Sequence record: MH791411.1
Strand: one strand, 5' to 3'
Length of the DNA: 64,000 nucleotides
DNA from: Escherichia phage Ecwhy_1
Shown: positions 3,071 to 17,702 of the stretch, in pieces
Layout: the number at the start of each line of letters is the position of its first letter
How positions within the stretch are numbered: the first letter of the stretch is position 1
Program-made: the position numbers and the translations under genes
The notes under the pieces: generated by a model
What the model saw: only the letters and a program-made list of their open reading frames with translations
Database searches by the model: none
Told to the model about the DNA's origin: nothing

Positions 3071-3084
3071 TTTGTTTGTCCTAT

Positions 3085-3115: not shown

Positions 3116-3131
3116 TTAGTACTGCAAGTTA

Positions 3132-3527
3132 TTAGATAACCTGGCGGCGTTTACTGTATACTGTTACACGATTACCCTTACGATCATGTCGGATCTCTTT
3201 CTGGTTGCGAATCAGTTCACTTGGACGCTTAAGGTTTGCCAGGTGATCCGCGTGAGTCCATGCGGTGTGGTTTACCTGTACTTTGATATCAGAATCAGCG
3301 ATAAACTCATCTTGTGCGTCAAGTATTGCCGCCAGCATATCCGCTCGTTTTAGTTCTGCTGCTGTCAGTACTGGCTCAGGTGAATTCACAATATCAGAGA
3401 TTTCTTTGAACTGTACGGCCCAGCGTTGACCTTTCGTTGCATCTTTGCCCATGTCTTTAAATGCTGCTCCTTCCTCGCGTGCAACAATACGGGCAGCTTC
3501 ACGGGTAGCGTAGAATTTAGTAATCAT
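3132..3527 (-). CDS. hypothetical protein; paralog of 16542-16808
   Basis: shared KYFATREQARIAAR..GATFKDMG..DRKGNRVTVY; start set at MITKF after AGGA. Confidence 0.6.
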   Translation of the reverse strand: MITKFYATREAARIVAREEGAAFKDMGKDATKGQRWAVQFKEISDIVNSPEPVLTAAELKRADMLAAILDAQDEFIADSDIKVQVNHTAWTHADHLANLKRPSELIRNQKEIRHDRKGNRVTVYSKRRQVI

Positions 3528-3622
3528 GGTATACATCCTATTAGTTGAGTTAGTACTACAAGTTAGAGTCTATTATAAAGTACTATCTGGGCAATGTCAA
3601 ATAGTACTTTAAATGGATTCTA

Positions 3623-3946
3623 TTACATGTCTTTCTTACGTTTTACATCGTGGTAGCGAACTGTTATTTCTTTGTTGATCTCTTCCTCGATGCGATGAAT
3701 AACTTTTTCTTTCGGGTTGAAACCTATAACGGTTTCTTTAATGATCTCCAAGCCCGTGTATTCGCCTTGTGTACCGTAACCGTATGTAAAGGTTTCGTGT
3801 CCCAGGTCTTCCCAGCGGTCGCCAATTAACGCAGACACGTAGCAAGAGTGGTAAGTATTGCCGTGTGAATCAGTCCACCGATTAACGTTAATGTCAAAGG
3901 AGGTTACAATTTTCAATTCTACTTTCTGGGCAAGGATCATAGCCAT
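3623..3946 (-). CDS. hypothetical protein; paralog of 10466-10789
   Basis: shared RWTDSxGNTYHSCxVS..TYGY..VKRKKD; ATG start. Confidence 0.65.
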   Translation of the reverse strand: MAMILAQKVELKIVTSFDINVNRWTDSHGNTYHSCYVSALIGDRWEDLGHETFTYGYGTQGEYTGLEIIKETVIGFNPKEKVIHRIEEEINKEITVRYHDVKRKKDM

Positions 3947-4033
3947 TTTTATTTCTCTCTCTTTGTTAGGAGGGGAACCATTCCCCTCGCTTGATGTAAA
4001 CTATTATACAGTACTAAGATACTTTGTCAATAC
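3947..4033 (-). promoter_or_regulatory. PeSL-like cassette
   Basis: TTGACA-17-TATAAT + GGGGAATGGTTCCCC hairpin. Confidence 0.65.
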
Positions 4034-4216
4034 TTATTTTTTGGAAAGTTTACGCATTAATTCTACGCTTTCTTGTGAACGTTTTGCTACCTGGCAAGCT
4101 GTATGGGCAGTAAACATTTTTGTATAGTCTGACGCTTTGCCACCGAACCGAGCGGCACGTTCACGGGCACTTGGAACTAATACTATTTCTTTATTACAGA
4201 TAGTGCACTTAGCCAT
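4034..4216 (-). CDS. hypothetical small Cys-containing protein (60 aa)
   Basis: trimmed to MAKCTICNK; CxxC near N-terminus. Confidence 0.55.
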   Translation of the reverse strand: MAKCTICNKEIVLVPSARERAARFGGKASDYTKMFTAHTACQVAKRSQESVELMRKLSKK

Positions 4217-4304
4217 TTTTATTTCTCTCTCTTTGTTAGGAGGGGAACCGTTTCCCCTCACTTGATGTAAACTATTATACAGTACTAAGATACTTTGTCA
4301 ATAC
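4217..4304 (-). promoter_or_regulatory. PeSL-like cassette
   Basis: TTGACA-17-TATAAT + GGGGAAACGGTTCCCC hairpin. Confidence 0.65.
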
Positions 4305-4580
4305 TTAAGTATTGTAAATGTCGTGAATAGTGATAAAGTTTTTACGACCGTAAACATGTAAATCAGTATCAATGTAGTGCTTATCAAGTACATCCTCGAC
4401 GCTTAAAGACGTGTCGTGAATATCTTCATAAAATTGTGGATCAACAATCGTGCTTAAGTCATCTGGCGTTAACTTATCGTTAAGGCATTGAACCGCCTGG
4501 ATATCTGCTTCACGTTTCCATTGTTCCAGATTAGTAGTCAGTACTTGCTCGATTTCGTTAGCTGTAAGTAAAGTCCGCAT
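4305..4580 (-). CDS. hypothetical protein (91 aa)
   Basis: ORF track; ATG after AAGGAAAC. Confidence 0.6.
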   Translation of the reverse strand: MRTLLTANEIEQVLTTNLEQWKREADIQAVQCLNDKLTPDDLSTIVDPQFYEDIHDTSLSVEDVLDKHYIDTDLHVYGRKNFITIHDIYNT

Positions 4581-4600
4581 TTTAATGTTTCCTTATCAGT

Positions 4601-4740
4601 GGTTGATGTAAGTATTATACTCGTTTACTTTCTATTGTCAAACTATTTTATCAGGGGAGTTTTTCGTATGTCTTACTCCTGGACTACTTAACGGGGTTAC
4701 TTATTTCGTTCCCCGTCCTGATGTAAAACATTATACTTGA
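4601..4740 (-). repeat. duplicated structured leader, copy A (copy B at 15826-15960)
   Basis: ~140 bp near-identical; two hairpins (ACGGGG..CCCCGT; CAGGAGT..ACTCCCCTG) between tandem promoters. Confidence 0.6.
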
Positions 4741-4784
4741 TTCTAAGTACAATGCAAGTACTTTTTTAAAAATAGTTTTCAGTA

Positions 4785-4895
4785 CTAGCCACCAGCAAAC
4801 AATAGATACATTTATGCACCCTGTGGGCTAATTTGTTTCTATGCGTATATAATAGCAAAGGGACTGACCGGAGTCAATCCCTTTTTCAAATATTT
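4785..4895. repeat. conserved ~120-bp intergenic element, copy 2
   Basis: GCACCCTGTGGGC box + GGGACTGACCGGAGTCAATCCC hairpin + T-run. Confidence 0.6.
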
Positions 4896-5045
4896 TTAAA
4901 CTTCTTTCGGGTTGCGATATGTGATAGCGTTCGGGTACATTTGTTTAATGTTATTCCATGCCTGGTTAACATTATAACCACTTGATCGAATCAGTTGGTT
5001 ATTACCGACACCTTGAAACACTACTTCAAATAAGAATTCTTTCAT
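4896..5045 (-). CDS. hypothetical small protein (49 aa; below track cutoff)
   Basis: ATG overlaps stop of 5042 gene (ATGA); reads MKEFLFEVVFQGVGNNQLIR. Confidence 0.4.
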   Translation of the reverse strand: MKEFLFEVVFQGVGNNQLIRSSGYNVNQAWNNIKQMYPNAITYRNPKEV

Positions 5046-5215
5046 GCTTTCACCTCTCGATCTGCTTTGCCTTTACGCCAGGCCGTTGCTAATTGTTCGC
5101 GTTGCCATAAGTCGAGTGATACGTAAAGTTTTGCATTATCACCCTTCGGATATTCGCCAGTAGTACCAATCCGATAAAACAGATCTTTCAGTACTGTTAA
5201 TTCTACCTGGACCAT
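5042..5215 (-). CDS. hypothetical protein (57 aa)
   Basis: trimmed to MVQVELT after hairpin read-through. Confidence 0.5.
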   Translation of the reverse strand: MVQVELTVLKDLFYRIGTTGEYPKGDNAKLYVSLDLWQREQLATAWRKGKADREVKA

Positions 5216-5302
5216 TATACTTTCCTCTTTGTTAGGAGGGGAACTATTCCCCTTCCGATATAAAACATTATACACTTTATTCAGTACTGTGCAAGTACTT
5301 TT
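5216..5302 (-). promoter_or_regulatory. PeSL-like cassette
   Basis: promoter + GGGGAATAGTTCCCC hairpin. Confidence 0.6.
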
Positions 5303-5515
5303 TTAATCTTTCAGCCAATGATCCTGAATGAATTTTTCACCGGAACCTTGCTGCATTGATTGTAACAGACGTTCGCGATGAGCGGCGGCGAATTGCTCAG
5401 TACTATGCGTTACACCTGGTTGATATCTGGATTCACCATTTGGGGCGATGTATTGTACATCCCACGGTTTTTCGTTAGTATCAGACCATTTACGAACGAT
5501 TAGTTGACCTTGCAT
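5303..5515 (-). CDS. hypothetical protein (70 aa)
   Basis: ORF track; ATG start. Confidence 0.6.
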   Translation of the reverse strand: MQGQLIVRKWSDTNEKPWDVQYIAPNGESRYQPGVTHSTEQFAAAHRERLLQSMQQGSGEKFIQDHWLKD

Positions 5516-5598
5516 TTTTCTTTCCTCTTAGTGGGGAGAATCATTTCTCCCCTTCATGTAAACTATTATACAGTACTGGATTGCATTGTCAATAGTTT
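5516..5598 (-). promoter_or_regulatory. PeSL-like cassette
   Basis: TTGACA-17-TATAAT + GGGGAGAAATGATTCTCCCC hairpin. Confidence 0.65.
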
Positions 5599-5922
5599 TT
5601 ATTCACCTTGTTTGAATATAGTTTTCTCCATTGATTCCATGATTGCAACCAATACAGCATGGATCTCACTTAACGCGGCATCACTAAAAGCATTAATGAA
5701 TAGGCAATCATTCTCGCGAATATTTTTAATGTACTTATCAGCAGTGGTTGCGAATTCATTCAACGGCAGATCAAATGCTTTATCCCATAATGGATGGCGT
5801 AACTGTAACAGTACTGGATTATCACGATCACCAGGGGAAAACGTACCAGTGATGAAACATACGCCCGGAATACTTTCGAACTGGCAACGGACTTCCTTTG
5901 TGATAGTAGTATGAATGTACAT
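5599..5922 (-). CDS. hypothetical protein (107 aa)
   Basis: ORF track; GAGGA SD. Confidence 0.6.
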   Translation of the reverse strand: MYIHTTITKEVRCQFESIPGVCFITGTFSPGDRDNPVLLQLRHPLWDKAFDLPLNEFATTADKYIKNIRENDCLFINAFSDAALSEIHAVLVAIMESMEKTIFKQGE

Positions 5923-5949
5923 TTATTGTTATCCTCTATTAAATTAATA

Positions 5950-6138
5950 TTACAGTTTATGAATTAATTCTTTATCTAAGCGATAGCGTACATTATTAAT
6001 GGTAACAGCATTATTTTTAATGCTACGCTGTACGGGTCCACCAGCAATAACAAACGTTGCTTTATTGCCCCGAACAATGATAGCACTTCCAGGATTACCG
6101 AAATCATCTTGTACTAAAATACTTGATAAGTTTTCCAT
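5950..6138 (-). CDS. hypothetical protein (62 aa)
   Basis: ORF track. Confidence 0.55.
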   Translation of the reverse strand: MENLSSILVQDDFGNPGSAIIVRGNKATFVIAGGPVQRSIKNNAVTINNVRYRLDKELIHKL

Positions 6139-6216
6139 TTTTATTTCCTCTTAGTAGGGGAAGATGTTTCCCCTTGATGCAAGTACTATAACAGTACTGA
6201 AAACTAAATGCAAGTA
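6139..6216 (-). promoter_or_regulatory. PeSL-like cassette
   Basis: promoter + GGGGAAACATCTTCCCC hairpin. Confidence 0.6.
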
Positions 6217-6573
6217 CTATGATAAAATCATGATAGGATATTCACTATCTATCAATACCTCGAATCCGAAACCTTCGTACCATTCTTTAAGATTAAAGGC
6301 GTTATCTTCTCCCGTATCGCATTCTAAGATGATACAATCTGAATCATCGGCGGCATCAATAAAGGCATTCATTAATTCGTTACCTTCACCATTGCCCCGA
6401 CTATCAGGATCAACATAAAGAGAATCAATAAACGCTACACGGTCATAATCAAGATCCGGTGCAATGATTCCACGTTTAACAAACCAGTACTGCAATTGTG
6501 CTACTTTGCCCTGTACTTGATAGCCAGTGATCTCGCCATTGTCAGTAGTACGCGTGATATGTTGTATTCCCAT
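6217..6573 (-). CDS. hypothetical protein (118 aa)
   Basis: ORF track; TTGACA-17-TATAAT promoter and GAGGAT SD upstream. Confidence 0.6.
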   Translation of the reverse strand: MGIQHITRTTDNGEITGYQVQGKVAQLQYWFVKRGIIAPDLDYDRVAFIDSLYVDPDSRGNGEGNELMNAFIDAADDSDCIILECDTGEDNAFNLKEWYEGFGFEVLIDSEYPIMILS

Positions 6574-6636
6574 GATTACTATCCTCAGTTAAGATATAAA
6601 ACATTATACACTATCTTTCAGTACTGTCAATACTTT

Positions 6637-6894
6637 TTATCTCATAGATCTATGCCAACAATTACGCGGATCTCTTTTAAAAGTACTATCATGATCCTCC
6701 TGGCAAGTAATACAATACATGCACCCTATAACGGCCTGGCGTCGATTCTCAGGGATTTTATCGCCGCAGTCGAGGCAATGTACAAGTGATTCTCTTTGTG
6801 CGTTAATTTGCTTTCTAGCGTGGTTAACGGCGGCCTGAATCACTGCATGAATCTCGTCTTGTTCGGCCCCGTCTTTCGCGTATCCTACTGCCAT
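6637..6894 (-). CDS. TraR/DksA-family C4 zinc-finger protein (85 aa)
   Basis: CLDCGDKIPENRRQAVIGCMYCITC = CxxC-x17-CxxC with conserved IPxxRR. Confidence 0.65.
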   Translation of the reverse strand: MAVGYAKDGAEQDEIHAVIQAAVNHARKQINAQRESLVHCLDCGDKIPENRRQAVIGCMYCITCQEDHDSTFKRDPRNCWHRSMR

Positions 6895-7056
6895 TATTTT
6901 AACCTCATTATAAAAATACTATAGTACTGTAATGCTACAATAATACTACTAGTGTTTATCTTATTCAAACCATATGATACTACATATCCACCAGCATTAC
7001 CACGAATAGTAACGCCTTTGTACTGTCTATATAAATTCAACTGCGTATATTGCCTT

Positions 7057-7129
7057 TGATCAAGAATTGATCAGAATTATACGCCTTATGCTAAATTGAT
7101 CCAGTACTTTTTTGATCATTTATTGATCG
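7057..7129. promoter_or_regulatory. cluster of five TGATC(A) / GATC sites
   Basis: five GATC within ~73 bp in an intergenic region. Confidence 0.5.
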
Positions 7130-7223
7130 ATATTATATAGTTACATTTGTGCACCCTATGGGTTAGTGACGTTCTCGTCTTGATGTAAGTATTATGCCAG
7201 TACTGGAGGATATTGTCAATAGA

Positions 7224-7421
7224 TTATTTTAATTTTTTTCTGTCATTGATTAATGCTTTCAGTACTATACTAATAACTTGCAATGATTCATCAATGACAA
7301 TGAAATTATTCTCTTTCATTAGATGATAGTTACCATTGATTGTATATTCTAACGAGTACTGTTTACGTTTAATTTTTGATAATGTTTCTATTTGTTTTTG
7401 TACTGATTTCATGCTAATCAT
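7224..7421 (-). CDS. hypothetical protein (65 aa)
   Basis: track ORF starts at TTG; ATG (MISMKS) two codons downstream. Confidence 0.5.
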   Translation of the reverse strand: MISMKSVQKQIETLSKIKRKQYSLEYTINGNYHLMKENNFIVIDESLQVISIVLKALINDRKKLK

Positions 7422-7489
7422 TGTCAAACGTCCTGTAACGCATTCTAACGAGATAAACGGTTTAGTACTGGCATTGTATAGGGTAAATG

Positions 7490-7527
7490 ATTAAAGCCCA
7501 CCAGCGTTAACCAGTGGGCTATAATAT
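7490..7527 (-). terminator. rho-independent terminator candidate
   Basis: AGCCCACTGG..CTGGTGGGCT hairpin + T-run (minus). Confidence 0.5.
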
Positions 7528-8023
7528 TACATCTTGCGGATAATCTTAACAGTATCTTTCACCGATTTACCGTTTTGCTGACATTGCTCGATCATCGCGT
7601 ATTGTTCTGCGGTCAGATCCTCGCCAGTTTTTGCCAGTACTGCGTCGATGAATGAATCCAGTGCGATCATTTTATTTCTCTCTTAGGTTAAGTTAACTAC
7701 TGTTTATAAAACTTATTATACAGTACTATCAATCTATGTCAATAGTACTGGTAATATATTTTAGCGGTAGTCGTCGTATGCTTTATTCACCTGGCGAATA
7801 TAACTTTCAAAGGCTTCGTCTACCGTTTCATACTCCCGAACATAATCACCATATGAAACTACATACATACCTTTTTGATCTTCAAACGTCATGATGATAG
7901 AATCCAGACCAACGATTTCAGTTTTTGCGATGATAGCCATTTTTTAATTCCTTAGTAGTGTAGTTGATAAAAGTTATTATGTCAGTACTATCAAACTATG
8001 TCAATAGTACTGTGATAATATTT

Positions 8024-8236
8024 TTAGTTAATGATAGTCAGTGTAAAATTGTAATCACCGCAGCGATATAGCACGTTATTCCCAAATGTCCCAACTAATC
8101 GCACATCACACAAAACGCCGGTTTTTTCTTTTACTTCCTTGATACTTGTAACTCCTGTAATATCTTTATTAAAGTATTCATGATCTGAAAATAAAACTTG
8201 TTTTGCATTTTTTAATTTCGACCGGATATTAGCCAT
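8024..8236 (-). CDS. hypothetical protein (70 aa)
   Basis: ORF track; PeSL-like cassette upstream. Confidence 0.6.
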   Translation of the reverse strand: MANIRSKLKNAKQVLFSDHEYFNKDITGVTSIKEVKEKTGVLCDVRLVGTFGNNVLYRCGDYNFTLTIIN

Positions 8237-8332
8237 TTTGTTTTCTCTCTCTGTTAGTGGGGAGAAGTTTTTCTCCCCTTGATGTAAACTATTATACAGT
8301 ACTATAATCTATTGTCAAACTATTTTTTTATA
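8237..8332 (-). promoter_or_regulatory. PeSL-like cassette
   Basis: TTGACA-17-TATAAT + GGGGAGAAAAACTTCTCCCC hairpin. Confidence 0.65.
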
Positions 8333-8674
8333 TTATTCGAAATCTTCTGGACCGGACTGATAATCATCTTCACCGTATGCACTTTCTAACCGCTCGCCAG
8401 TGTGATCATCAGTTAGTGAGTCATCCTCATAGTTCACGTCTACGCCAGTGATGTAAAACTGGCTATCGTCTGGATCATTGAAATTAATTTTCTGTATGTT
8501 TACAATAACTGTATTGATGCCCAGGACACCGCCATCAGCCGTTACAAAGTACTGATAGTTTTCGCAACCGCCTGAATTGAAACCGTAATTAATTTCGGCC
8601 CGACCATCATTTAAACGCAGTGCCTGGGCGATGATTTCGTTTTCAAAGTTAGATTGAGCAATTGAGATAGTCAT
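8333..8674 (-). CDS. hypothetical protein (113 aa)
   Basis: trimmed to MTISIAQ after hairpin read-through. Confidence 0.55.
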   Translation of the reverse strand: MTISIAQSNFENEIIAQALRLNDGRAEINYGFNSGGCENYQYFVTADGGVLGINTVIVNIQKINFNDPDDSQFYITGVDVNYEDDSLTDDHTGERLESAYGEDDYQSGPEDFE

Positions 8675-8760
8675 GATTTGTTTCCTTATTACCAGGGGAA
8701 ACCGTTTCCCCCTCTCGATGTAAAACATTATACGCTTATTGAGATAGTTTGCAAGTACTT
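8675..8760 (-). promoter_or_regulatory. PeSL-like cassette
   Basis: promoter + GGGGGAAACGGTTTCCCC hairpin. Confidence 0.6.
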
Positions 8761-8784
8761 TCTACAAATACTTTTAAAATAGTT

Positions 8785-8905
8785 TTCAGTACTCAATACT
8801 CATATAATAGATACACTTATGCACCCTGTGGGCTAGTGAGCTATCTCTCAATGAATATATAATAGCAAAATGGCTGACCGGAGTCAACCACTTTTTTCAT
8901 TTATT
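8785..8905. repeat. conserved ~120-bp intergenic element, copy 3
   Basis: GCACCCTGTGGGC box + TGGCTGACCGGAGTCAACCA hairpin + T6. Confidence 0.6.
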
Positions 8906-9126
8906 TTTAGCTTTTAGAATCGCCGCCTTTCGCGTCATGCCTTGCTTGATGTATTCTTGTACTTTCGCTTTACGTGCATTCGCTTTATTTGCTTTCGTAA
9001 ATGCCGAACAACTTTTATAGTTTAAACCTGTTGGATTCATTTAAATCACCATAAAGAATAGATAGGTTACTAACAACGCCGCGATCAATGCACCGACCAG
9101 GGCCGAACTATAGTAAGCTAATGTTT

Positions 9127-9279
9127 TCATTTTTTAGCCTGAAAGTAATGTTTAATTTGAGCGGCGGTCAGTGCACAATTACGCAGGAAGTTTTCTGTAT
9201 AACTGCGGCGAGTACTGAAAGAGAATTGACCTTTGCCGTTACCGATAGTAACATCAAACCGAGCGTTGTATTGTTTCAT
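9127..9279 (-). CDS. hypothetical protein (50 aa)
   Basis: trimmed to MKQYNARFD. Confidence 0.45.
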   Translation of the reverse strand: MKQYNARFDVTIGNGKGQFSFSTRRSYTENFLRNCALTAAQIKHYFQAKK

Positions 9280-9363
9280 TTTGATTCTCCTGTTATTGGG
9301 GAGAATCATTTCTCCCCTTCATGTAAAACATTATACAGTACTAAAAACTAATTGCAAGTACTA
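9280..9363 (-). promoter_or_regulatory. PeSL-like cassette
   Basis: promoter + GGGGAGAAATGATTCTCCCC hairpin. Confidence 0.6.
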
Positions 9364-9507
9364 TTTTTTAGATTTACGCAAACTTTCTACCATCTCAGGA
9401 GTAAGGCCCGGCGGGTAGGAAACTACTTCATCAACGAAACGTAAAGGGAATACCCCAGCGAAAGGTGAACGTGCTTTCTTAGTATTACTCTTTTTTGATG
9501 CTTTCAT

Positions 9508-9576
9508 TTCATATTCCTTAATTAGTGGGGAGAATCATTTCTCCCCTTCATGTAAAACATTATACGCGTTTAAAAA
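9508..9576 (-). promoter_or_regulatory. PeSL-like cassette
   Basis: same hairpin as 9280 cassette; precedes an unannotated ~48-aa ORF (MKASKKSN..) at ~9364-9507. Confidence 0.5.
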
Positions 9577-9786
9577 CTAATTGCAAGTACTATTTGAAAG
9601 TAAATGCTCATACGCTGCATTAACTACGTTTTCAATAACCGACTGTACAGAAAGATCCCCCACGTCCTGGCTATAGTAGAAATCGCTTACAGTGGTGTCA
9701 TCGTATGCAAATACTTTACCAGGTACTGCATCAATCACATACATATTAACCTTTAAGATGTCGATCTTATCCTGTACAGTAAGCAT
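9577..9786 (-). CDS. hypothetical protein (69 aa)
   Basis: ORF track. Confidence 0.55.
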   Translation of the reverse strand: MLTVQDKIDILKVNMYVIDAVPGKVFAYDDTTVSDFYYSQDVGDLSVQSVIENVVNAAYEHLLSNSTCN

Positions 9787-9791
9787 ATTAA

Positions 9792-10064
9792 TTAACCTTT
9801 TAAGTACTGGCTTAAGTAGTCTTGTTGATCTTCGGTGATTGCAGCCATCTTCCCTAGTACTGGATTAATGATATAATCCCCTGTAACGTCCTGTAACGCA
9901 TTCTCAGGCGGTTTAACGGCTGGGGTAGCCATAGCCATCGCCTGGACTTGTTCGACGCTATAACGCTCATATAGGCGGCATTCTTCCGGTGTTAACATAG
10001 CATCAATGCGTTTCATTGGTTTAATGATGCTTTCAACTTCATTCAGTACTTGATTAACGTTCAT
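9792..10064 (-). CDS. hypothetical protein (90 aa)
   Basis: ORF track; ATG. Confidence 0.6.
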   Translation of the reverse strand: MNVNQVLNEVESIIKPMKRIDAMLTPEECRLYERYSVEQVQAMAMATPAVKPPENALQDVTGDYIINPVLGKMAAITEDQQDYLSQYLKG

Positions 10065-10115
10065 GGTATAATCCCCAATATAAGCGGCCTGAATCGACCG
10101 CTAACGATGTTTTGA

Positions 10116-10385
10116 TTAATAGGTGTATGGTTGACGTTCAAACAATGATTGCACGTTGTACGCCCCACTAATGGGCTTTGCTGGTAAATCAATTTTATAT
10201 TGCTCACGCTTAAAGATAATAAAACGGCAATTGTTTTTAACATCAAAATTGATTGAACGTTCCAGTAGTTTACCATCGTGCACAAATACAAGATAACCGC
10301 TCGCTACTTGTTTTGTAGTACTGGTTGCAACCATAGACCGCCGAACATGTGTACCTGCGTCGATTAAAGTACTGATATTTTTCAT
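10116..10385 (-). CDS. hypothetical protein (89 aa)
   Basis: ORF track; AAGAGGAA SD; preferred over overlapping 10061-10291. Confidence 0.55.
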   Translation of the reverse strand: MKNISTLIDAGTHVRRSMVATSTTKQVASGYLVFVHDGKLLERSINFDVKNNCRFIIFKREQYKIDLPAKPISGAYNVQSLFERQPYTY

Positions 10386-10465
10386 TATACGTTCCTCTTA
10401 AGTTAATTTAATTTCTTTCCCCTATGCAGACACTATATCAAAGTATCTGCATAAAGTAAAGCTAA

Positions 10466-10789
10466 TTAAAGATCTTTTTTGCGTTTAACATTCTGTACAG
10501 TACAATGCAACGGGATATTAAGATCATTGCACAAACGAGTAAGGGAGGTTTCATCAGTATTAAGCCCGTCTACTGATTCCTTTAATAGATCTAACGCCGT
10601 TTGTTGATATGCATCTTCATAGCCATAAGTAAATGATTCAACCGCCAGATCATTCAAACCGTTATCCAGTTCGACGCTTACATGACAAGAATGATAAGTA
10701 TTGCCATATGAATCAGTCCAACGTTTACCGTCAACATTGATTGCACGGATTGCAGCCAGGGAAACGGTGTTAATGATAGTTTTAGCCAT
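10466..10789 (-). CDS. hypothetical protein; paralog of 3623-3946
   Basis: shared RWTDSYGNTYHSC..TYGY..VKRKKD. Confidence 0.65.
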   Translation of the reverse strand: MAKTIINTVSLAAIRAINVDGKRWTDSYGNTYHSCHVSVELDNGLNDLAVESFTYGYEDAYQQTALDLLKESVDGLNTDETSLTRLCNDLNIPLHCTVQNVKRKKDL

Positions 10790-10878
10790 TTTTGTATTCC
10801 TTAAATTAATATGTTGTCTTGATAAAATCTATTATGCCAGTACTATCAAACTATGTCAATAGTACTGTGATAATATTT

Positions 10879-11091
10879 TTACTTACTTTCTTTCGCTGCT
10901 TTGTGCGTTGCCACTGCCATAACCACATCAGCACGAACAAAGTTTTTAACCGTGTCGCTGTAATAATTGATCGCTTCATCAATATCTGCGAACATCCGAT
11001 ACATACCGCACCACGATACTTTATAACCTGCTTTCACTTCTTCCAGCTTAACCAGTGATTTGTTAACTTTGATTTTAGTAATGATAGCCAT
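10879..11091 (-). CDS. hypothetical protein (70 aa)
   Basis: ORF track; upstream promoter cassette identical to the one at 10790-10878. Confidence 0.6.
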   Translation of the reverse strand: MAIITKIKVNKSLVKLEEVKAGYKVSWCGMYRMFADIDEAINYYSDTVKNFVRADVVMAVATHKAAKESK

Positions 11092-11319
11092 TTTATTTTC
11101 CTCAGTTGTCTTGATAAAATCTATTATGCCAGTACTATCAAACTATGTCAATAGCACTGTGATAATATTTTTACTTACTTTTTGCTTTCTTGATTGCTTC
11201 CACCTGGTCGGCCCATTCTTTACCCCATACTTGTAAATTATAATGGTACTGGCAAAGAGCAACGCCCCGCTTTAAACCCGTAATAGATTTCTGACCACAT
11301 TGACAAGTTTTCATTTTAG

Positions 11320-11400
11320 TTTCCTTGTAGTGGGGAGAACCATTTTCTCCCCTTGATGTAATGTATTATACTTTATTCGATTTACTTTGCAAGTACTTTT
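11320..11400 (-). promoter_or_regulatory. PeSL-like cassette
   Basis: promoter + GGGGAGAAAATGGTTCTCCCC hairpin; precedes unannotated ~47-aa Cys-containing ORF (MKTCQCGQK..) at ~11176-11319. Confidence 0.5.
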
Positions 11401-11628
11401 TTAATTTAATTCATCAAGGCAAAGGATACGCTCAACGCCCAAATCAGTTAAACTAATCGACGGCACTTGATAGGTTTCAATGTATGCTACACTTGCCCAC
11501 TGACCGAACTCATTAACGGCCCAGGTATTCATTGCATTTTGCAATTCCGCACCTTCCTTGTTGGTAATGACTGCAACTACTTGTTCGTTGCCAGTAGTAC
11601 CAGATACGCGAGTAATGATAATAGCCAT
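11401..11628 (-). CDS. hypothetical protein (75 aa)
   Basis: trimmed to MAIIITRV. Confidence 0.55.
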   Translation of the reverse strand: MAIIITRVSGTTGNEQVVAVITNKEGAELQNAMNTWAVNEFGQWASVAYIETYQVPSISLTDLGVERILCLDELN

Positions 11629-11720
11629 TGTTTTGATTCCTTTGATTTGGAAGGAGAACCGTTTCCCCCTCTCGATGTAAAACATTATACGCTAATCTCT
11701 TAATCGTGCAAGTACTTTTT
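11629..11720 (-). promoter_or_regulatory. PeSL-like cassette
   Basis: promoter + GGGGGAAACGGTTCTCC hairpin. Confidence 0.6.
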
Positions 11721-11869
11721 ATTACTTTTTGCAAAATACTTTAAACGCTCTCAATCGCGTTCTTACAGCCTTAACGCCACCAGCTAGGGCAATGCATCAG
11801 ATAATCAGTTTAATGCGTTAGAATCGTTTCTAGGCGGTGCTGGTGGCATGGTAAACGATAAACACAAAA

Positions 11870-11913
11870 AAGCCCACCGTTTAAGGTGGGCTAGTGATTC
11901 AGTACTTTAATTG
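11870..11913 (-). terminator. rho-independent terminator
   Basis: GCCCACC-TTAAAC-GGTGGGC hairpin + TTTTTT on minus strand after stop. Confidence 0.7.
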
Positions 11914-12396
11914 TTATGCTTCAACTTTGCGATGAGATTCGATCCATTCCTCGCGAGTCATACCGCTGGCGTTAATCGCGTCCAGTACTACCGCAATGCA
12001 GTTACCACGCACCGGAATCAGATATTCTTCCCCGTTGTCCAGTACTACCGCTACGCGTTCCTGAATCCATTTTTTGGCTTTTACTTCTGGCTTGTCTTCC
12101 CCATACTTAACCGCCAGGGCTTTTTGTGCCATCTCTGTAACTACTTCCAGATCCAATCCAACTACTGCCGCCTGAATACTTTCGATTGTTGCTTGTAGTT
12201 CTGCTTCACGGGCCGCCTTTGCCGCTTCAATTTCTGCCGCTTTATTTGCTTGTAGTTCTTTCGCAGTACTGTACGCGATGTTAAAATTATTGCGTACCGC
12301 TTTCATGGTATCGTTATCCAGTTCAGCCAGGATCTCAGCCGCGACGTTAGTTTCATTTGCTACCAGTGCTTTGATGAATGATTTTACATTAGCCAT
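11914..12396 (-). CDS. hypothetical protein (160 aa), Ala/Glu-rich
   Basis: track ORF starts at TTG; ATG (MANVKSF) follows GAGGA SD. Confidence 0.6.
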   Translation of the reverse strand: MANVKSFIKALVANETNVAAEILAELDNDTMKAVRNNFNIAYSTAKELQANKAAEIEAAKAAREAELQATIESIQAAVVGLDLEVVTEMAQKALAVKYGEDKPEVKAKKWIQERVAVVLDNGEEYLIPVRGNCIAVVLDAINASGMTREEWIESHRKVEA

Positions 12397-12599
12397 TTTA
12401 TAAATCCTCAATTAAAGTTTAGTTTACGTTTATTAGTGTATCAAAGTTTTCTCGACGTGTCCAGTTTTTCGTTCGACTTACTGGCGGTCTACTTAGTGCT
12501 CCCCGTCTTGATGTAATACATTCTACGCTTTTCTGCGGTAATGTCAACTACTTTCTTAAAACTATTTTCAAAGTATCTCAGTACTACGATACTACAAAA

Positions 12600-12629
12600 A
12601 CAAAAAAGCCCACCAGGTGGGCTATGTAC
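12600..12629 (-). terminator. rho-independent terminator
   Basis: GCCCACC-TGGTGGGC hairpin + T-run (minus). Confidence 0.65.
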
Positions 12630-12860
12630 TTAATCAGTGAGTAAAATATTAAACACTTTACCATTTAACGTTATTGGTGCACTGCTACCAGGCACAAGAT
12701 CCGTTAGTATACCTGCAATCGCTTTATCATTGGCTACCTTTCCAGTGTCCAACAGTACTACAGTACTGATAAGATTAACGCTCGTTTCAATATCATAATG
12801 CACGGCGTTAAGTAGTTGTGTAGTACTGCTTTCGTTAAGTAAAACAATTCGCTTAGTCAT
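12630..12860 (-). CDS. hypothetical protein (76 aa)
   Basis: ORF track. Confidence 0.55.
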   Translation of the reverse strand: MTKRIVLLNESSTTQLLNAVHYDIETSVNLISTVVLLDTGKVANDKAIAGILTDLVPGSSAPITLNGKVFNILLTD

Positions 12861-12881
12861 GATGTTACCCCGTAGTATCTA

Positions 12882-13181
12882 TCAACGGCAATTAATAACG
12901 CCGGTATGAGTTACTTTCTCGGTATCCATTACAGTGACCGAACCGCGTTTAGCACTGGCATCATAATAAATTGTCGTGCTACCGTTTTCGTCTTCTTCAT
13001 GGAACGGGCCGTTTTTAAATGCTTCCGGCTGGATCTCTAAATCCTTTAATACAATCTCGCCAGTTCTTTCATCGGTCATTGCAACAGTGCACTGAATGAA
13101 TTTTTCACTACTTACATCTAATGACGCATTAACAGCGAAAGAGGAAACAGATAAAGCCAGGGCGATGATTGCAATTTTCAT
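12882..13181 (-). CDS. secreted hypothetical protein (99 aa)
   Basis: N-terminal signal-peptide-like MKIAIIALALSVSSFAVNAS. Confidence 0.6.
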   Translation of the reverse strand: MKIAIIALALSVSSFAVNASLDVSSEKFIQCTVAMTDERTGEIVLKDLEIQPEAFKNGPFHEEDENGSTTIYYDASAKRGSVTVMDTEKVTHTGVINCR

Positions 13182-13265
13182 TTGATTATCCTTAGTTACC
13201 AGGGGAAACCGTTTCCCCTTGCGATGTAAAATATTATACAGTACTAAAAACTAATTGCAAGTACT
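13182..13265 (-). promoter_or_regulatory. PeSL-like cassette
   Basis: promoter + GGGGAAACGGTTTCCCC hairpin. Confidence 0.6.
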
Positions 13266-13502
13266 TTATGATTTTTTATAAAACATTTCAGCAGTGATAT
13301 TTTTACCCGTTGGCTGTACTTTATCCAGAATTTTTTGATGCCCTGGTCGTCCAAAGGAATATGATCCGTAAACAGTAAACCAGTAGTTACCCTCAGTGTT
13401 TACATGTACAGCACAATAAGGAACACCACGCGATTCATCACTAGTAAAGTGTGATACCGTTCCCGTTACATTCGCAGACGTTGATTTGATTTGTTCGACC
13501 AT
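13266..13502 (-). CDS. hypothetical protein (78 aa)
   Basis: ORF track. Confidence 0.6.
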   Translation of the reverse strand: MVEQIKSTSANVTGTVSHFTSDESRGVPYCAVHVNTEGNYWFTVYGSYSFGRPGHQKILDKVQPTGKNITAEMFYKKS

Positions 13503-13580
13503 TTTCTTATTCCTTAGTTACCAGGGGAACCGCTCCCCCTATGCAAAACATTATACGCGTTTAAAAACTAATTGCAAGTA
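13503..13580 (-). promoter_or_regulatory. PeSL-like cassette
   Basis: promoter + GGGGGAGCGGTTCCCC hairpin. Confidence 0.6.
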
Positions 13581-13610
13581 TTTTAATAAAAAGTATTTGA
13601 AAAATAGTTG

Positions 13611-13680
13611 TTGACAAGTGCATCCAGTACTGGCATAATTACTACATCAAGACGAAACAGTCACTAACCCACCGGGTGCC
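13611..13680 (+). promoter_or_regulatory. plus-strand sigma70-type promoter + conserved box
   Basis: TTGACA-N17-CATAAT on plus strand, ACCCACCGGGTGC box ~30 nt downstream. Confidence 0.5.
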
Positions 13681-13745
13681 GAGATCCGTCTATTAAATGA
13701 TTCAGTACTGAAAAAGTAACGGGGAGTTATTATCTCCCCGTGTTG

Positions 13746-13967
13746 TTATTTTGTAAGGTATAAACAGAAGTCGCCTTTATTTGCTACGCCGCCAGTGTAA
13801 CGCGAGGAATAGTTAGAAACGTCCTGGACTTCTGCTATTACCAGGGTATCATCATTCAATTCGTCGCAGAAGCAAACGGCTGGATCTTGTACGCCGATTT
13901 TGTCGGCATGTTCCCGCATAGATTTAACCAGTGCTTCCAGTTGGGAAAGAGTAGTGATATTAGCCAT
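13746..13967 (-). CDS. hypothetical protein (73 aa)
   Basis: trimmed to MANITTL. Confidence 0.55.
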   Translation of the reverse strand: MANITTLSQLEALVKSMREHADKIGVQDPAVCFCDELNDDTLVIAEVQDVSNYSSRYTGGVANKGDFCLYLTK

Positions 13968-14051
13968 TTTATTTTCCTCATTACCAGGGAGAACCATTTC
14001 TCCCTTTGATGTAAACCATTATACAGTACTGAAAACTAATTGCAAGTACTT
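13968..14051 (-). promoter_or_regulatory. PeSL-like cassette
   Basis: promoter + GGGAGAAATGGTTCTCCC hairpin. Confidence 0.6.
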
Positions 14052-14240
14052 TTAATTAAATTCCATAAAATCATTTTCAACGTGCACAACAATCTGATTA
14101 TTTTTAAAGGACGCAGAAAACTCTATACAATCATAAACCGCTTTTTCTGTTACCAGACTATGAGCACCAATCGGATTAATTGGGGATTGAATTGTTTCAA
14201 TCTCGTTACCTTGTTCATTAACGATTAAAATATTAAACAT
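14052..14240 (-). CDS. hypothetical protein (62 aa)
   Basis: ORF track. Confidence 0.5.
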   Translation of the reverse strand: MFNILIVNEQGNEIETIQSPINPIGAHSLVTEKAVYDCIEFSASFKNNQIVVHVENDFMEFN

Positions 14241-14279
14241 TGCCGTTACTCCTGGATAGTGTTAACTCGATATAAAGTA

Positions 14280-14462
14280 TTATACGCCTTTATTGCTTAG
14301 TGTCCAGTGATCACGCATCATACGCCCCGCACGATCCCAGCTAGTAGGCATGGGTATGCCTTGCAATTCGTTAGGGGAGATCTCGACCTCGATCCCTACA
14401 TCAATAACAGTCATTCCAGCTTTCGCAGCTTGCTCGCGGATAACCTCAGATAATGTTGTCAT
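14280..14462 (-). CDS. hypothetical protein (60 aa)
   Basis: ORF track; leader duplicated from the 14052 gene. Confidence 0.5.
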   Translation of the reverse strand: MTTLSEVIREQAAKAGMTVIDVGIEVEISPNELQGIPMPTSWDRAGRMMRDHWTLSNKGV

Positions 14463-14536
14463 GATTAAAGCTCCTGGATAGTGTTAACTCGATATAAAGT
14501 ATTATACAGTACTGAAAACTAATTGCAAGTACTTTT

Positions 14537-14797
14537 TTAATATTGTTTGTCGTCGTCTTCCTCGATGAATTGACCGACGAAATGATCTACTTTCGCTTTG
14601 AGGCTTTTATAATCTTCTTCTACTTCCGTTAAACGTTCCTGGTAGTATTCCAATGCTTCAAGATACGCCGCCTCAGCAGTTTTTGCACGCATAGCTAAAT
14701 TCATTCCACGCGTTTCATCAAATAGCCAATAACCATCGGTGCACTGGCTAATAGATAATGACTTGCTTAGTACTGTATAGCTAATTACTTTACTCAT
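14537..14797 (-). CDS. hypothetical protein (86 aa)
   Basis: ORF track; GAGGG SD after GGCGGGTAATAGTTCCCGCC hairpin. Confidence 0.6.
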   Translation of the reverse strand: MSKVISYTVLSKSLSISQCTDGYWLFDETRGMNLAMRAKTAEAAYLEALEYYQERLTEVEEDYKSLKAKVDHFVGQFIEEDDDKQY

Positions 14798-14854
14798 TAG
14801 ATAACCCTCAGTAAAGGCGGGAACTATTACCCGCCATTATCTCAGTACTGAATA

Positions 14855-15094
14855 TTACATTCCAACCATTGCAGCACGGATCGCAGTAGTGCTATACTTA
14901 AAGCCGTCCGGCGTTGTAGTAGTACCGTTGGCTTTTAATCTGCGGTACATACATTCCGCAGCAATATCTTTAGTTCTACTTTGTGCGATGCAACTTTGAG
15001 CAAGCCGATACAATGACTCACCGTTATTAATCCAAAGGCTTACATTCCAATGAGTTTTGTTTTTGTGTCCGTTGTAAGTTTTAGTACTAGCCAT
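14855..15094 (-). CDS. hypothetical protein; paralog of 16895-17134
   Basis: shared HKNKTHWNVSLWINN..PDGFKYSTTAIRAAMVGM; trimmed to MASTK. Confidence 0.6.
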   Translation of the reverse strand: MASTKTYNGHKNKTHWNVSLWINNGESLYRLAQSCIAQSRTKDIAAECMYRRLKANGTTTTPDGFKYSTTAIRAAMVGM

Positions 15095-15184
15095 TTTTAA
15101 ATCCTCGTTTGAGCGGGGAACCACTCCCCGCCTCGATATAAAGTATTATACGCTTTTAAACTTAGTTTGCAAGTACTTTTTAAA
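15095..15184 (-). promoter_or_regulatory. PeSL-like cassette
   Basis: promoter + CGGGGAGTGGTTCCCCG hairpin. Confidence 0.6.
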
Positions 15185-15796
15185 TTAATATTCGATTGAT
15201 TCCACTACGCCATCAATAACATTGAATTGATACTCGTTACCCTCAATCAGTGCCGTAATGTTTTCAGTAGTGAATTGATCCTCATATGCATTCTCTAAAT
15301 CACGGTACAACTTGCGGGACAATTCACGAATAGTTTCAGTGAGTAGTTCCTCAAGCTCATTAACTAACGTTTCTTGTTTTGCGGTTAAATCAGTGTAAGC
15401 CGATTCAATGTACCCGCTTACAGTATTCTCATGCGAGTAGTGGGAGTGCGAACGTTTTACACTCATCGCCAAATCATCTTCATTCAGCAAGTGACGGATT
15501 GAGCGATACTTAGTTAATGCTCTTACCTTGCGTAAAAACTTCACTGCGTCAACGTGGTCAGTACTGATTGATGCACCGTCACCCTGGGACCAAAAACCAC
15601 TGAATTGTATTTCAGCGTCATTAATGCCATATTCCGGTAGTACTGTTTCTTTATAGTATTCAATTTCACTTTCAGAAAAATAATTGTCGTTTGAGTTTTT
15701 TTCACGTTCCCGAACCAGTTCGATAGCTGACGTTTGTTGTTCTGCGTTCAATTCAGAAAAAGCCATAACATAAGTAGTAGTAGTGATAGTTTTCAT
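15185..15796 (-). CDS. hypothetical protein (203 aa)
   Basis: ORF track; ATG after GAGGGT SD. Confidence 0.65.
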   Translation of the reverse strand: MKTITTTTYVMAFSELNAEQQTSAIELVREREKNSNDNYFSESEIEYYKETVLPEYGINDAEIQFSGFWSQGDGASISTDHVDAVKFLRKVRALTKYRSIRHLLNEDDLAMSVKRSHSHYSHENTVSGYIESAYTDLTAKQETLVNELEELLTETIRELSRKLYRDLENAYEDQFTTENITALIEGNEYQFNVIDGVVESIEY

Positions 15797-15825
15797 TTTG
15801 TAACCCTCATTCAGTAGTTGATGTA

Positions 15826-15960
15826 AGTATTATACGCTTTTAAAAACATTTGTCAAACTATTTTATCAGGGGAGTTTTTCGTGTGCCTTACTCCTGGGCT
15901 ACTTAACGGGAAGTTACTTATTTCGTTCCCCGTCCTGATGTAAAACATTATACGCCTTTA
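15826..15960 (-). repeat. duplicated structured leader, copy B
   Basis: near-identical to 4601-4740. Confidence 0.6.
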
Positions 15961-16020
15961 AACATAGTTTGCAAGTACTTTTTAAAAATAGTTTTCAGTA
16001 CTGAATAGTAAAAAAAAGTA

Positions 16021-16081
16021 TTGACAGCATTATCAAGTACTGGTATAATATACCCCATGACAACAGCTAACCCACCGGGTG
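16021..16081 (+). promoter_or_regulatory. plus-strand consensus sigma70 promoter + conserved box
   Basis: TTGACA-N17-TATAAT (perfect consensus), ACCCACCGGGTGC box downstream. Confidence 0.6.
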
Positions 16082-16223
16082 CACAATTGTAACTATACTA
16101 AACTAATTTTTCTATAGATACACTCCCGCACCCTATGGGCTACGGCTTATCTGCCAATGAATACATTATGCCAGTACTGACAAAATAAGTCAATACCGGC
16201 AATTGTAAAGATTTGTAAACTGC

Positions 16224-16460
16224 TTATACTGCAATCGCGTCCAGGCTATAATAATAATAAGTGCCGTATTGGTGTACTTTATTACCTTTTATTTCAGTAC
16301 TGAATGAATCCGAACGGTTTGCATATGATGTTAATTTAAAGTACTTTGATTTGCTGATACGTTGCCATACACCACAGATCCGCTGTAAGTAAGTAGTTTT
16401 ATTCGTGGTAGTATCTTTTACGGTTTTAACTTCAGTCATATACATATTAGTCATTTTCAT
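16224..16460 (-). CDS. hypothetical protein (78 aa)
   Basis: ORF track; GGAG SD. Confidence 0.55.
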   Translation of the reverse strand: MKMTNMYMTEVKTVKDTTTNKTTYLQRICGVWQRISKSKYFKLTSYANRSDSFSTEIKGNKVHQYGTYYYYSLDAIAV

Positions 16461-16541
16461 TACTCCAGGTTATAGGCGGGAAGAGTTCCCGCTCTCGATG
16501 TAAAACATTATACGCCATTAAACATAGTTTGCAAGTACTTT
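16461..16541 (-). promoter_or_regulatory. PeSL-like cassette
   Basis: promoter + GCGGGAACTCTTCCCGC hairpin. Confidence 0.6.
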
Positions 16542-16808
16542 TTATTCAAGTACTGCAATCTTTTTAGTACGGTACACGGTCACGCGGTTGCCCTTTCGGT
16601 CGAGCTTTATTTCTACCACTCGACGCGATACACTATCGGGACTTTTTAAGGCCGCTAACCAGTACTGTAATGATCTGGCGGTACTACGCTTTACAATGGC
16701 CCAACGTTTACCACGTTCCGATTGTACGCCCATATCTTTAAACGTTGCCCCGTCCTGGCGTGCGGCGATCCGAGCTTGTTCACGCGTCGCAAAATACTTA
16801 ATTTTCAT
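16542..16808 (-). CDS. hypothetical protein; paralog of 3132-3527
   Basis: trimmed to MKIKYFATREQ. Confidence 0.6.
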   Translation of the reverse strand: MKIKYFATREQARIAARQDGATFKDMGVQSERGKRWAIVKRSTARSLQYWLAALKSPDSVSRRVVEIKLDRKGNRVTVYRTKKIAVLE

Positions 16809-16894
16809 GCTGTTGCCCTTATCGTTGGTGTATGAATAAAACACTATTATAAAGTACTATCGCAAAAAAATGATAGTACTTTAAATAAATTCTA

Positions 16895-17134
16895 TTACAT
16901 TCCAACCATCGCCGCACGGATCGCAGTAGTGCTATATTTGAATCCGTCCGGTGTTTTATCTTGTCCAGTCTGTTCTAAAAATAACATCATATGACGGGCC
17001 GCATCATTGCGATTAGTGCTATCGTTAATAAAGTCCTGGGCCAACCGATACAATCCCTCATCGTTATTAATCCAAAGGCTTACATTCCAATGAGTTTTGT
17101 TTTTGTGACCTAAGAACATTTTTGATTTAGCCAT
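16895..17134 (-). CDS. hypothetical protein; paralog of 14855-15094
   Basis: trimmed to MAKSKMF. Confidence 0.6.
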   Translation of the reverse strand: MAKSKMFLGHKNKTHWNVSLWINNDEGLYRLAQDFINDSTNRNDAARHMMLFLEQTGQDKTPDGFKYSTTAIRAAMVGM

Positions 17135-17227
17135 TTTTTTAATCCTCTTATATAGTGGGGAACTATTCCCCACCTGATGTAAAACATTATACGCCATTAA
17201 ACATAGTTTGCAAGTACTTTATTAAAC
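17135..17227 (-). promoter_or_regulatory. PeSL-like cassette
   Basis: promoter + GGGGAATAGTTCCCC hairpin. Confidence 0.6.
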
Positions 17228-17590
17228 TTATTTGTAAATTTTGCCACTGTCAGCCCATACCAGGAAACGAGGCATATTATCCCATGCATCTTGTTTTAAG
17301 TTTAAGCCGTGCAATTCCTCAGTTGTTGCCATCCCTGGTACTGGCTTACTACACACCGCGAAATTTTCGCCCATATACTGATAAACCATCGTCAAATCAT
17401 TTGAGATCATTATATGGATCATTGAATCCAGCATCAAAGTAGCGGCGTATTGTTCACGCTTAAGCGGCAACATTGCAATAAGTTCCCGATAAGCTGCAAT
17501 GTGAATTTTTACAGTTTCAGCCGGAAGACCTTTCATCTCATCGCGGAAGTTTACCAGGTTAAGCATGATTTTATTGATTTGAGTCGCCAT
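17228..17590 (-). CDS. hypothetical protein (120 aa)
   Basis: trimmed to MATQINK. Confidence 0.6.
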   Translation of the reverse strand: MATQINKIMLNLVNFRDEMKGLPAETVKIHIAAYRELIAMLPLKREQYAATLMLDSMIHIMISNDLTMVYQYMGENFAVCSKPVPGMATTEELHGLNLKQDAWDNMPRFLVWADSGKIYK

Positions 17591-17650: not shown

Positions 17651-17702
17651 ACGCTTTTATCAGTACGGTGCAAGTACTTTCTACAAATACTTTTAAAATA
17701 GT

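Follow-up and report, generated by a model that had tools for sequence, protein, structure and literature searches.

A portable, structured non-coding motif among the early promoters of an Asteriusvirus jumbo coliphage, with a homologue between the T7 promoters A1 and A2

Escherichia phage Ecwhy_1 is an Asteriusvirus jumbo coliphage of the PBECO4/121Q type. A 64,000-nucleotide stretch of its genome (MH791411.1; termed here the window) carries on the minus strand a leader that is found in near-identical form ahead of two unrelated genes. Phages ph0011, fEgEco12 and WPEC3 are 100% identical over the query. Sequence comparison shows that the duplicated leader represents two copies of a structured motif that has a third paralogue in the window, and that the motif and the segment separating early promoters A1 and A2 in the T7 group are homologous. 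With a host-type (sigma-70) early promoter, the motif constitutes a portable, non-coding module that is inserted before a complete promoter-gene cassette. The arrangement itself is known, both from the tandem early promoters of T7-type phages and from arrays of the promoter and stem-loop cassettes termed PeSLs; the distribution across phage families is unexpected.

The duplicated segments and their promoters

The first-pass annotation had pointed to two near-identical minus-strand segments, each situated between an upstream TATAAT and a second TTGACA-N16-TATAAT promoter, and each ahead of a different gene. The repeat is real. Aligned over 261 nt, minus-strand positions 4540–4800 and 15760–16020 show 86% mean column identity, and the identity rises to 94.7% over a 95-nt core of the two copies, termed A and B. 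Core sub-patterns of 25 nt and 40 nt each have exactly two matches in the window, with 0 expected from 100 shuffles. The segments as first delimited are too short, as the block common to A and B also takes in the -35 hexamer of the upstream promoter (P1) and an A/T-rich tract upstream, and a third copy, C, is present at 12,454–12,514. A covariance-model search of the 64-kb window finds copies A, B and C and none besides.

The order in copies A and B is P1, about 75 nt of conserved sequence, a second promoter (P2), a short leader with a Shine-Dalgarno (SD) sequence, and then a gene; the two genes are unrelated, as first described. The promoters are predicted ones, called by sigma-70 consensus scoring of the sequence, and are shown at the consensus level only. 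The features are as follows.

4650..4724, minus strand: element copy A (covariance-model match, 97 bits)
15865..15941, minus strand: element copy B (covariance-model match, 88.2 bits)
12454..12514, minus strand: element copy C, diverged (covariance-model match, 57.8 bits, E = 4e-11)
4730..4757, minus strand: predicted promoter P1-A, sigma-70-type, with TTGCAT (4757-4752), a 16-nt spacer and TATAAT (4735-4730), read from the sequence
4614..4641, minus strand: predicted promoter P2-A, TTGACA-N16-TATAAT, perfect consensus (12/12)
4305..4580, minus strand: gene behind copy A, 91 aa, no assigned function (phrog_14947, no Pfam match)
15947..15974, minus strand: predicted promoter P1-B, TTGCAA-N16-TATAAT
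15829..15856, minus strand: predicted promoter P2-B, TTGACA-N16-TATAAT, perfect consensus (12/12)
15185..15796, minus strand: gene behind copy B, 203 aa, no assigned function (phrog_5162)
12520..12547, minus strand: predicted promoter P1-C, TTGACA-N16-TAGAAT (11/12)

About 16 gene promoters in the surrounding array, with TTGCAA-N16-TATAAT, belong to the class of P1-A, and a near-identical copy of P1-A at 1436–1513 serves an ordinary gene cassette.

Predicted fold of the element

In copy A, a closing helix (4722–4717 with 4655–4650) would enclose two hairpins. Hairpin 1 (4716–4691, ACGGGG..CCCCGT) is followed by the linker UAAGUAGUCCA (4690–4680) and then by hairpin 2 (4679–4656), where GGAGU and ACUCC flank a 14-nt loop. 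All three helices are held in the predicted minimum free energy fold (z = -3.4). Copy B has the corresponding closing helix at 15939–15934 with 15870–15865, hairpin 1 at 15933–15906, the linker at 15905–15895 and hairpin 2 at 15894–15871. Both hairpins had been proposed at first sight of the sequence. The ACGGGG..CCCCGT hairpin stands; the other, drawn as CAGGAGT..ACTCCCCTG, does not, and comparison supports GGAG(U)/(A)CUCC in its place.

Copy C has no local hairpin 1, and its GACG (12507–12504) is able to pair with CGUC (12457–12454). The linker UAAGUAG is at 12495–12489, and hairpin 2 is formed by CCAG (12484–12481) with CUGG (12464–12461). This copy runs straight into gene 11914–12396; downstream there is only a weak promoter-like site and no strong P2. 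Copy C is kept in every Asteriusvirus examined.

The motif is about 55–80 nt in length across lineages. A GC hairpin is joined by the linker UAAGUAG, which is invariant, to a hairpin of 4 bp whose 16-nt loop is conserved with the consensus (A)UAAGnCnnAnGAAmAA. In types A and B a predicted closing helix, AUCAGG/CCUGAU, encloses both hairpins; in type C and in a diverged allele, type D, the 5′ GACG(G) is predicted to pair instead with (C)CGUC located after hairpin 2. Fold energies are modest, with z-scores of -0.1 to -3.6. In the jumbo and rV5-like phages the motif begins at a constant distance from the -10 hexamer, which puts its start near +3 of the predicted transcript. Neither an intrinsic terminator nor a U-tract was found after the motif in any lineage, and there is none between the motif and P2.

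Homology with the T7 A1-A2 segment

The first pattern scans of IMG/VR and metagenomes matched Asteriusvirus copies only, because the patterns were too strict. A generalised pattern from types A, C and D (TAAGTAGNCNNNNNGTAAGNCNNANGAAAA) found, in IMG/VR, two contigs that are T7-like and a further one, of 366 kb, of the jumbo type. The same pattern gave a single match in a scan of genome contigs, in an archaeal metagenome-assembled genome, which is rejected as chance.

A covariance model trained on the jumbo and rV5-like copies only, with no T7-like sequence, matches T7 at 533–586 (28.9 bits, E = 4e-5), and other T7-like contigs and a second jumbo contig score 39–48 bits with the same model. The T7 match lies between the starts of promoters A1 (498) and A2 (626). 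In T3 the match is at 515–579, between the A1 -10 (467–472) and the A2 -35 (572–577). BLAST with T7 positions 520–600 finds the segment in 489 T7-like phage records, among them T7, T3, K1F and other Kayfunavirus, Drulisvirus and an Aeromonas phage. The motif is the most conserved part of the T7-like segment, and the most distant among the listed matches align only at the motif (T7 ~546–586). Motif sequences from T7-like, rV5-like and jumbo phages can be aligned with few gaps. Sequence and predicted structure show the motif and the A1-A2 segment to be homologous.

The T7 segment has the same parts: a hairpin, UAAGUAG, and a 4-bp hairpin with the loop (A)UAAGUCnnACGAAAAA; the stem sequences differ between T7 and the jumbo-phage motif. 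The setting is also alike, in that T7 A1-A2-A3 are strong tandem sigma-70 promoters on the same strand; they are near a genome terminus and read inward, as the jumbo-phage array appears to do from its annotated terminus. In T7-like, some rV5-like and jumbo phages the motif is almost always between tandem host RNA polymerase promoters, and a TTGACA -35 follows it in every T7-like example read, at a distance of 2–21 nt; the corresponding distance in the jumbo contig is 45 nt. The spacer of P2-A (TTGACAATAGAAAGTAAACG) resembles, by eye, those of T7 A3 and of the promoter after the motif in Klebsiella phage P1010. There are differences as well. The motif starts at about +35 of the upstream transcript in T7, and the terminal repeat of the jumbo phage has three copies, 3.4–14.6 kb from the terminus and among about 30 other cassettes, whereas T7 has one, about 0.5 kb from the end. 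The covariance model found no second motif copy between T7 A2 and A3.

The T7 A1-A3 promoters drive transcription-coupled genome entry (PMC11863960, PMC5569994). Their region has been termed a non-coding internalisation signal (PMC11863960), and the repressor Gp5.7 is placed at the -35 regions (PMC5569994). As a separate observation, the T7 early leader past A3 contains a perfect rrn-type boxA (GCTCTTTAACAA) at 812–823, and the same is present in Kosakonia phage Kc166A.

Movement of the module among jumbo and rV5-like phages

The core is found at 88–94% identity in nine rV5-like phages of about 140 kb, including muut, outra, EmilieFrey, A73, W70, A7_1 and A5-4. These copies are always directly behind a promoter and ahead of a further promoter-gene cassette. 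At the A73/A5-4 locus, phages UPEC06 and LTH01 have the more diverged type D allele in the same arrangement. Among rV5-like phages the motif occurs sporadically, in nine records and the two of type D.

What surrounds the motif varies. P1 is present in at least five different versions, and downstream the motif is flanked by six different cassettes, such that the gene behind the element varies among phages. P1 and P2 of A5-4 nearly duplicate one another, and 121Q has a different gene behind P2-A, the breakpoint of the replacement being in the leader. The element, P2 and the 91-aa gene are shared with muut as a single block of 91.4% nucleotide identity. In Vequintavirus, RaK2, Munch and Serratia phage BF, orthologues of the 203-aa gene are preceded by a single ordinary promoter, and the element is absent. 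Many cassettes are common to the early arrays of Asteriusvirus and rV5-like phages at 70–90% nucleotide identity, which indicates that exchange of such units is common.

With respect to the 203-aa gene, a homologue in Klebsiella phage K64-1 (NC_027399.1, 226963–227535) is annotated as a YeeU-like antitoxin; a Pfam search with the 203-aa protein of the window gave no significant match.

Compensatory changes and sequence constraint

Hairpin 2 differs in its stem between lineages: types A and B have GGAG/CUCC, type C shares CCAG/CUGG with the second jumbo contig, type D has CUUG/CAAG, and the T7-like phages have CCUG/CAGG. The 4-bp stem is paired in all 14 distinct sequences from four phage groups (56 of 56 cells), and three of its four pairs have changed on both sides. 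None of 500 shuffles reached the observed covariation score, and slid registers bring the paired fraction down to 27–67%. Covariation of this hairpin was also examined in a 5-bp version. An apparent covariation of two loop positions (A/U, G/C, U/A) is rejected, as the positions are 2 nt apart and type D has U/U.

Hairpin 1 is predicted directly 5′ of the linker in every lineage except C and D. Its stems are unrelated to one another: ACGGGG/CCCCGU, CCGG/CCGG, CCAG/CUGG, CCGGG/CCCGG and GGGA/UCCC. In type A the loop shows substitutions and indels (12–16 nt) and the stem is retained; only two stem changes are present, and both yield G-U pairs solely on the gene-sense strand. The core of copy A is 96–98% identical across Asteriusviruses, compared with 90–92% for the adjacent gene. 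Copies from CMSTMSU were set aside. That record is flagged as unverified, and its copies have several small deletions, found in no other genome, that look like sequencing or assembly errors.

It was proposed in the first-pass annotation that the leaders share a conserved RNA structure, with covariation in the leaders of related phages as a way to check it. The compensatory changes in hairpin 2, together with the retention of hairpin 1 in different sequences across lineages, support this proposal, and an RNA structure is moderately well supported by the comparison.

Possible functions of the motif

The best explanation overall, and one that we hold tentatively, is that the motif functions at the RNA level and in cis, on the earliest transcripts made by the host polymerase. 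Its conserved linker and loop would serve as a recognition site for a host component, which may be the transcribing polymerase itself in a put-like manner, a nuclease or another RNA-binding protein, and complexes or transcripts initiated at P1 would thereby gain elongation, pausing or stability behaviour unlike those initiated at P2. Pairing that is kept through sequence change, along with an invariant linker and loop, suggests that a trans factor recognises the motif, and speaks against a hairpin that only serves to stabilise the RNA.

A broader proposal, possible but doubtful, is that the motif is a functional RNA on the first host-polymerase transcripts of at least three unrelated virulent enterobacterial phage lineages, i.e. 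the T7-like, rV5-like and Asteriusvirus jumbo phages, and that it acts on polymerase in a put-like manner or via binding of a host factor. If this is so, a previously unrecognised regulatory element is present within the heavily used T7 A1-A2 promoter region. T7 A1-A3 is a textbook template, yet the A1-A2 motif is not an Rfam family. Conservation across families in the DNA that is transcribed first suggests a common need of very early infection; polymerase behaviour, transcript fate, genome entry and evasion of a host factor are candidates.

The putL and putR sites of phage HK022 (PMC9378689) offer a structural analogy. These are also RNAs of about 70 nt with two stem-loops, located within a few nucleotides of an early start site, and two similar copies per genome are found before unrelated early operons, as with copies A and B. 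HK022 put RNA acts by binding the beta-prime zinc-binding domain of RNA polymerase and suppressing termination, and it is followed by terminators, whereas here another promoter comes after the motif. HK022 nucleotides 20,000–32,000 gave nothing better than E = 0.95 with the motif model, and there is no sequence similarity to the HK022 early region.

Several points weigh against a cis-acting RNA. Transcription starts and RNA ends in this phage are predictions only. Copies A and B of 121Q both have an AAAACC variant, a sign of gene conversion between them, and similarity within a genome is thus weak evidence of selection. Only a few lineage splits account for the compensatory changes, and covariation of the symmetric Watson-Crick kind does not tell RNA from single-stranded or cruciform DNA. 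Copy C lacks both hairpin 1 and a strong P2, so that two hairpins and tandem promoters are not obligatory. Relative to P1, the motif starts at about +3 here but further along in T7-like phages, at about +35 to +55, which speaks against a mechanism that depends on a fixed 5′ end. In addition, neither a role for the T7 A1-A2 spacer nor a function assigned to the motif was found in the literature that could be searched.

The main rival is a DNA-level role in the tandem promoter array, as an element that fixes the spacing or bend separating two polymerase-loading sites, a site for a host nucleoid protein, or a conserved PeSL-type linker for homologous recombination by which promoter cassettes are shuffled. 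We consider it unlikely, yet it ranks first among the alternatives because the association with a downstream promoter is so consistent: the motif is nearly always 2–45 nt from the -35 of the second promoter in four phage groups. Promoter and stem-loop cassettes are exchanged between Asteriusvirus and rV5-like phages, as is the case for PeSLs (PMC2839356). The near-duplicate flanking promoters of A5-4 are what would be expected if a circular cassette integrates at a resident promoter, and the gene swap behind P2 in 121Q, with its breakpoint in the leader, also speaks for this role. However, compensatory stem changes and variants that pair only as G-U are unexpected for a protein-binding site in duplex DNA. 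The hairpin 1 loop (12–16 nt) and the distance to P2 (2–45 nt) vary in a manner unfit for a fixed DNA architecture, and recombination linkers require no conserved loop sequence.

Perhaps, instead, P1 transcribes a gene for a small trans-acting RNA at the start of infection, either a regulator or a decoy that titrates a host RNA-binding protein, ribonuclease or RNA-sensing defence. The motif has its own strong predicted promoter and no open reading frame (ORF), conservation extends to its unpaired linker and loop, unrelated phages that infect the same hosts have it as a portable unit, and the terminal-repeat non-coding RNAs of phage PA5oct (see below) provide a precedent. This reading is nonetheless rather improbable. 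The motif has no intrinsic terminator or U-tract in any lineage, and a discrete small RNA would therefore need processing or a roadblock at P2; a classical terminator-ended small RNA is rejected, since nothing resembling a terminator was found between the motif and P2. The motif of copy C, like that of T7, is simply one part of a long leader. No sequence similar to the motif was found in E. coli genomes or plasmids, which also indicates that it was not copied from host sequence. A crude duplex scan of the window for RNA targets gave no convincing one, returning only the antisense strand of the element itself, and is uninformative.

It might also be asked whether the motif has any function, or is a hitch-hiker in a mobile promoter cassette, kept alike by recent transfer and gene conversion. 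The visible A-B gene conversion, the sporadic presence in rV5-like phages and the partly degenerate state of copy C would fit a hitch-hiker. We give this little weight. The segment is present in 489 T7-like records over several genera and the motif is the most conserved part there, stem pairing is maintained through change in four lineages, and conservation is higher in the non-coding core than in the ORFs next to it.

A translational operator or RNA-processing site for the two downstream genes, as first suggested, is very improbable. In copy C the motif is a true 5′ untranslated region of the next gene, and hairpin 2 of type A sequesters an SD-like AGGAG. But P2 intervenes between motif and gene in A, B and almost all relatives, so that P2 transcripts do not have the element, and the downstream genes are unrelated and interchangeable; these two properties make a translational operator unlikely. 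Moreover, orthologues of the downstream gene are found without the element, AGGAG is missing from types C, D and T7, and no long duplex suited to RNase III is predicted.

It is scarcely credible that the conserved feature is a 7-codon ORF on the opposite strand (GGAG, an 8-nt spacer, and AUG/GUG UCU UAC UCC UGG ACU ACU UAA): the start is AUG or GUG in all A/B-type variants and a frequent A-to-C variant makes the upstream GGAGU into GGAGG, but no plausible promoter is present on the plus strand, where the ORF would run against two very strong convergent promoters, the start codon and SD are absent in type C, the frame is lost in types D and T7, and two of three variable codons alter the amino acid.

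Other candidates were tried and rejected. Sense-strand coding is excluded by the lack of a start codon, by indels that break the frame, and by a nonsense variant in PBECO4 copy C. CsrA-type GGA sites are absent from types C and D. A lambda-type nut site is not indicated, as boxA is not above chance in the window and the proteins encoded just downstream are not arginine-rich and are mostly acidic. Rfam gave no match at the element coordinates at E <= 1 over 20 kb, and only noise at E <= 10 with the element alone. A tRNA scan found none.

The terminal-repeat cassette array

The minus strand of window positions 1–19,327 holds about 30 small early-gene cassettes inside a direct terminal repeat. 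In a typical cassette a near-consensus sigma-70 promoter is followed by the initial transcribed sequence (A/G)TTTACATCAAG, by a GC-rich hairpin (GGGGAGAA..TTCTCCCC or a variant of it) and by an SD sequence, ahead of a small ORF. The direct terminal repeat of vB_Ec-M-J is annotated at 1–21,525, and its first base corresponds to window position 19,327 in reverse orientation; this mapping places the array within the terminal repeat, reading inward from the terminus. Distances to the annotated boundary are about 3.4 kb for copy B, 6.8 kb for copy C and 14.6 kb for copy A. The terminal repeat of the jumbo phage is organised as a large array of exchangeable promoter cassettes, parts of which are common to much smaller phages.

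The array resembles the PeSL cassettes of the T4-type phages RB49 and phi1 (PMC2839356), which belong to other phage families than Asteriusvirus. Both comprise dozens of intergenic units of about 100 bp, in which a strong sigma-70 promoter with an A/T-rich tract upstream of it is combined with a GGGG..CCCC stem-loop, and the units precede small orphan genes within a plastic region. The shuffling of cassettes, with breakpoints within them, is likewise PeSL-like, as judged here by comparing sequences. Unlike in PeSLs, the stem-loop of most cassettes here is 3′ of the -10, in the transcribed leader, and the motif module carries a conserved non-coding cargo in place of an ORF.

PA5oct is a jumbo phage of the same clade, and its terminal repeat is also packed with small genes that are transcribed early, with two highly expressed non-coding RNAs (PMC7318152). 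These RNAs, of 236 and 451 nt, were detected by RNA-seq and have no known promoters; the likeness to them is drawn from their description.

A second type of hairpin, with a 12-bp stem (AAAGGGNTGACCNNAGTCAANCCCTTT), is present in 12 copies, at 1586–1626, 4856–4896 and 8866–8906 and nine times within 42950–57546. On the minus strand the stem has a -35 TTGACT, followed by TATTAT, such that the -35 and the spacer are within the stem-loop. This promoter resembles the commonest PeSL subclass.

Other features of the window

Just upstream of copy B, the ORF-free segment 16018–16196 has convergent promoters around a 35-nt imperfect palindrome. The plus-strand promoter is TTGACA-N17-TATAAT with a TG (16021–16049) and the minus-strand promoter is TTGACT-N17-CATAAT (16193–16165). 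The palindrome arm CCCAYMGGGTGC..TGTAWCTATA is found again at ~4805–4835 (upstream of copy A), at ~7135–7165, at 18054–18073 and in Serratia phage BF. The segment may be another small non-coding unit.

Positions 18425–18576, which are 0.75–0.9 kb from the terminal-repeat boundary, contain degenerate 8-bp repeats (CGTCTAGC, CATCCAGC and similar). This run recalls the short repeat arrays near the T7 genome ends.

A strong terminator-like hairpin (GGCGGGATCAGTTCCCGCC then T6) is present at 3091–3109 on the minus strand. The genes past it, at 2816–3070, 2544–2819, 2244–2543 and 1628–2269, have no consensus promoter of their own, and their expression would need read-through from upstream promoters, those of copy A included.

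Outside the terminal repeat, the plus strand of 24344–39599 encodes twelve tandem paralogues of about 360–415 aa, with a period of about 1.2 kb and the N-terminus MLPFVRMFDYGN in common. Most of the twelve have their own TATAAT-type promoter and SD sequence.

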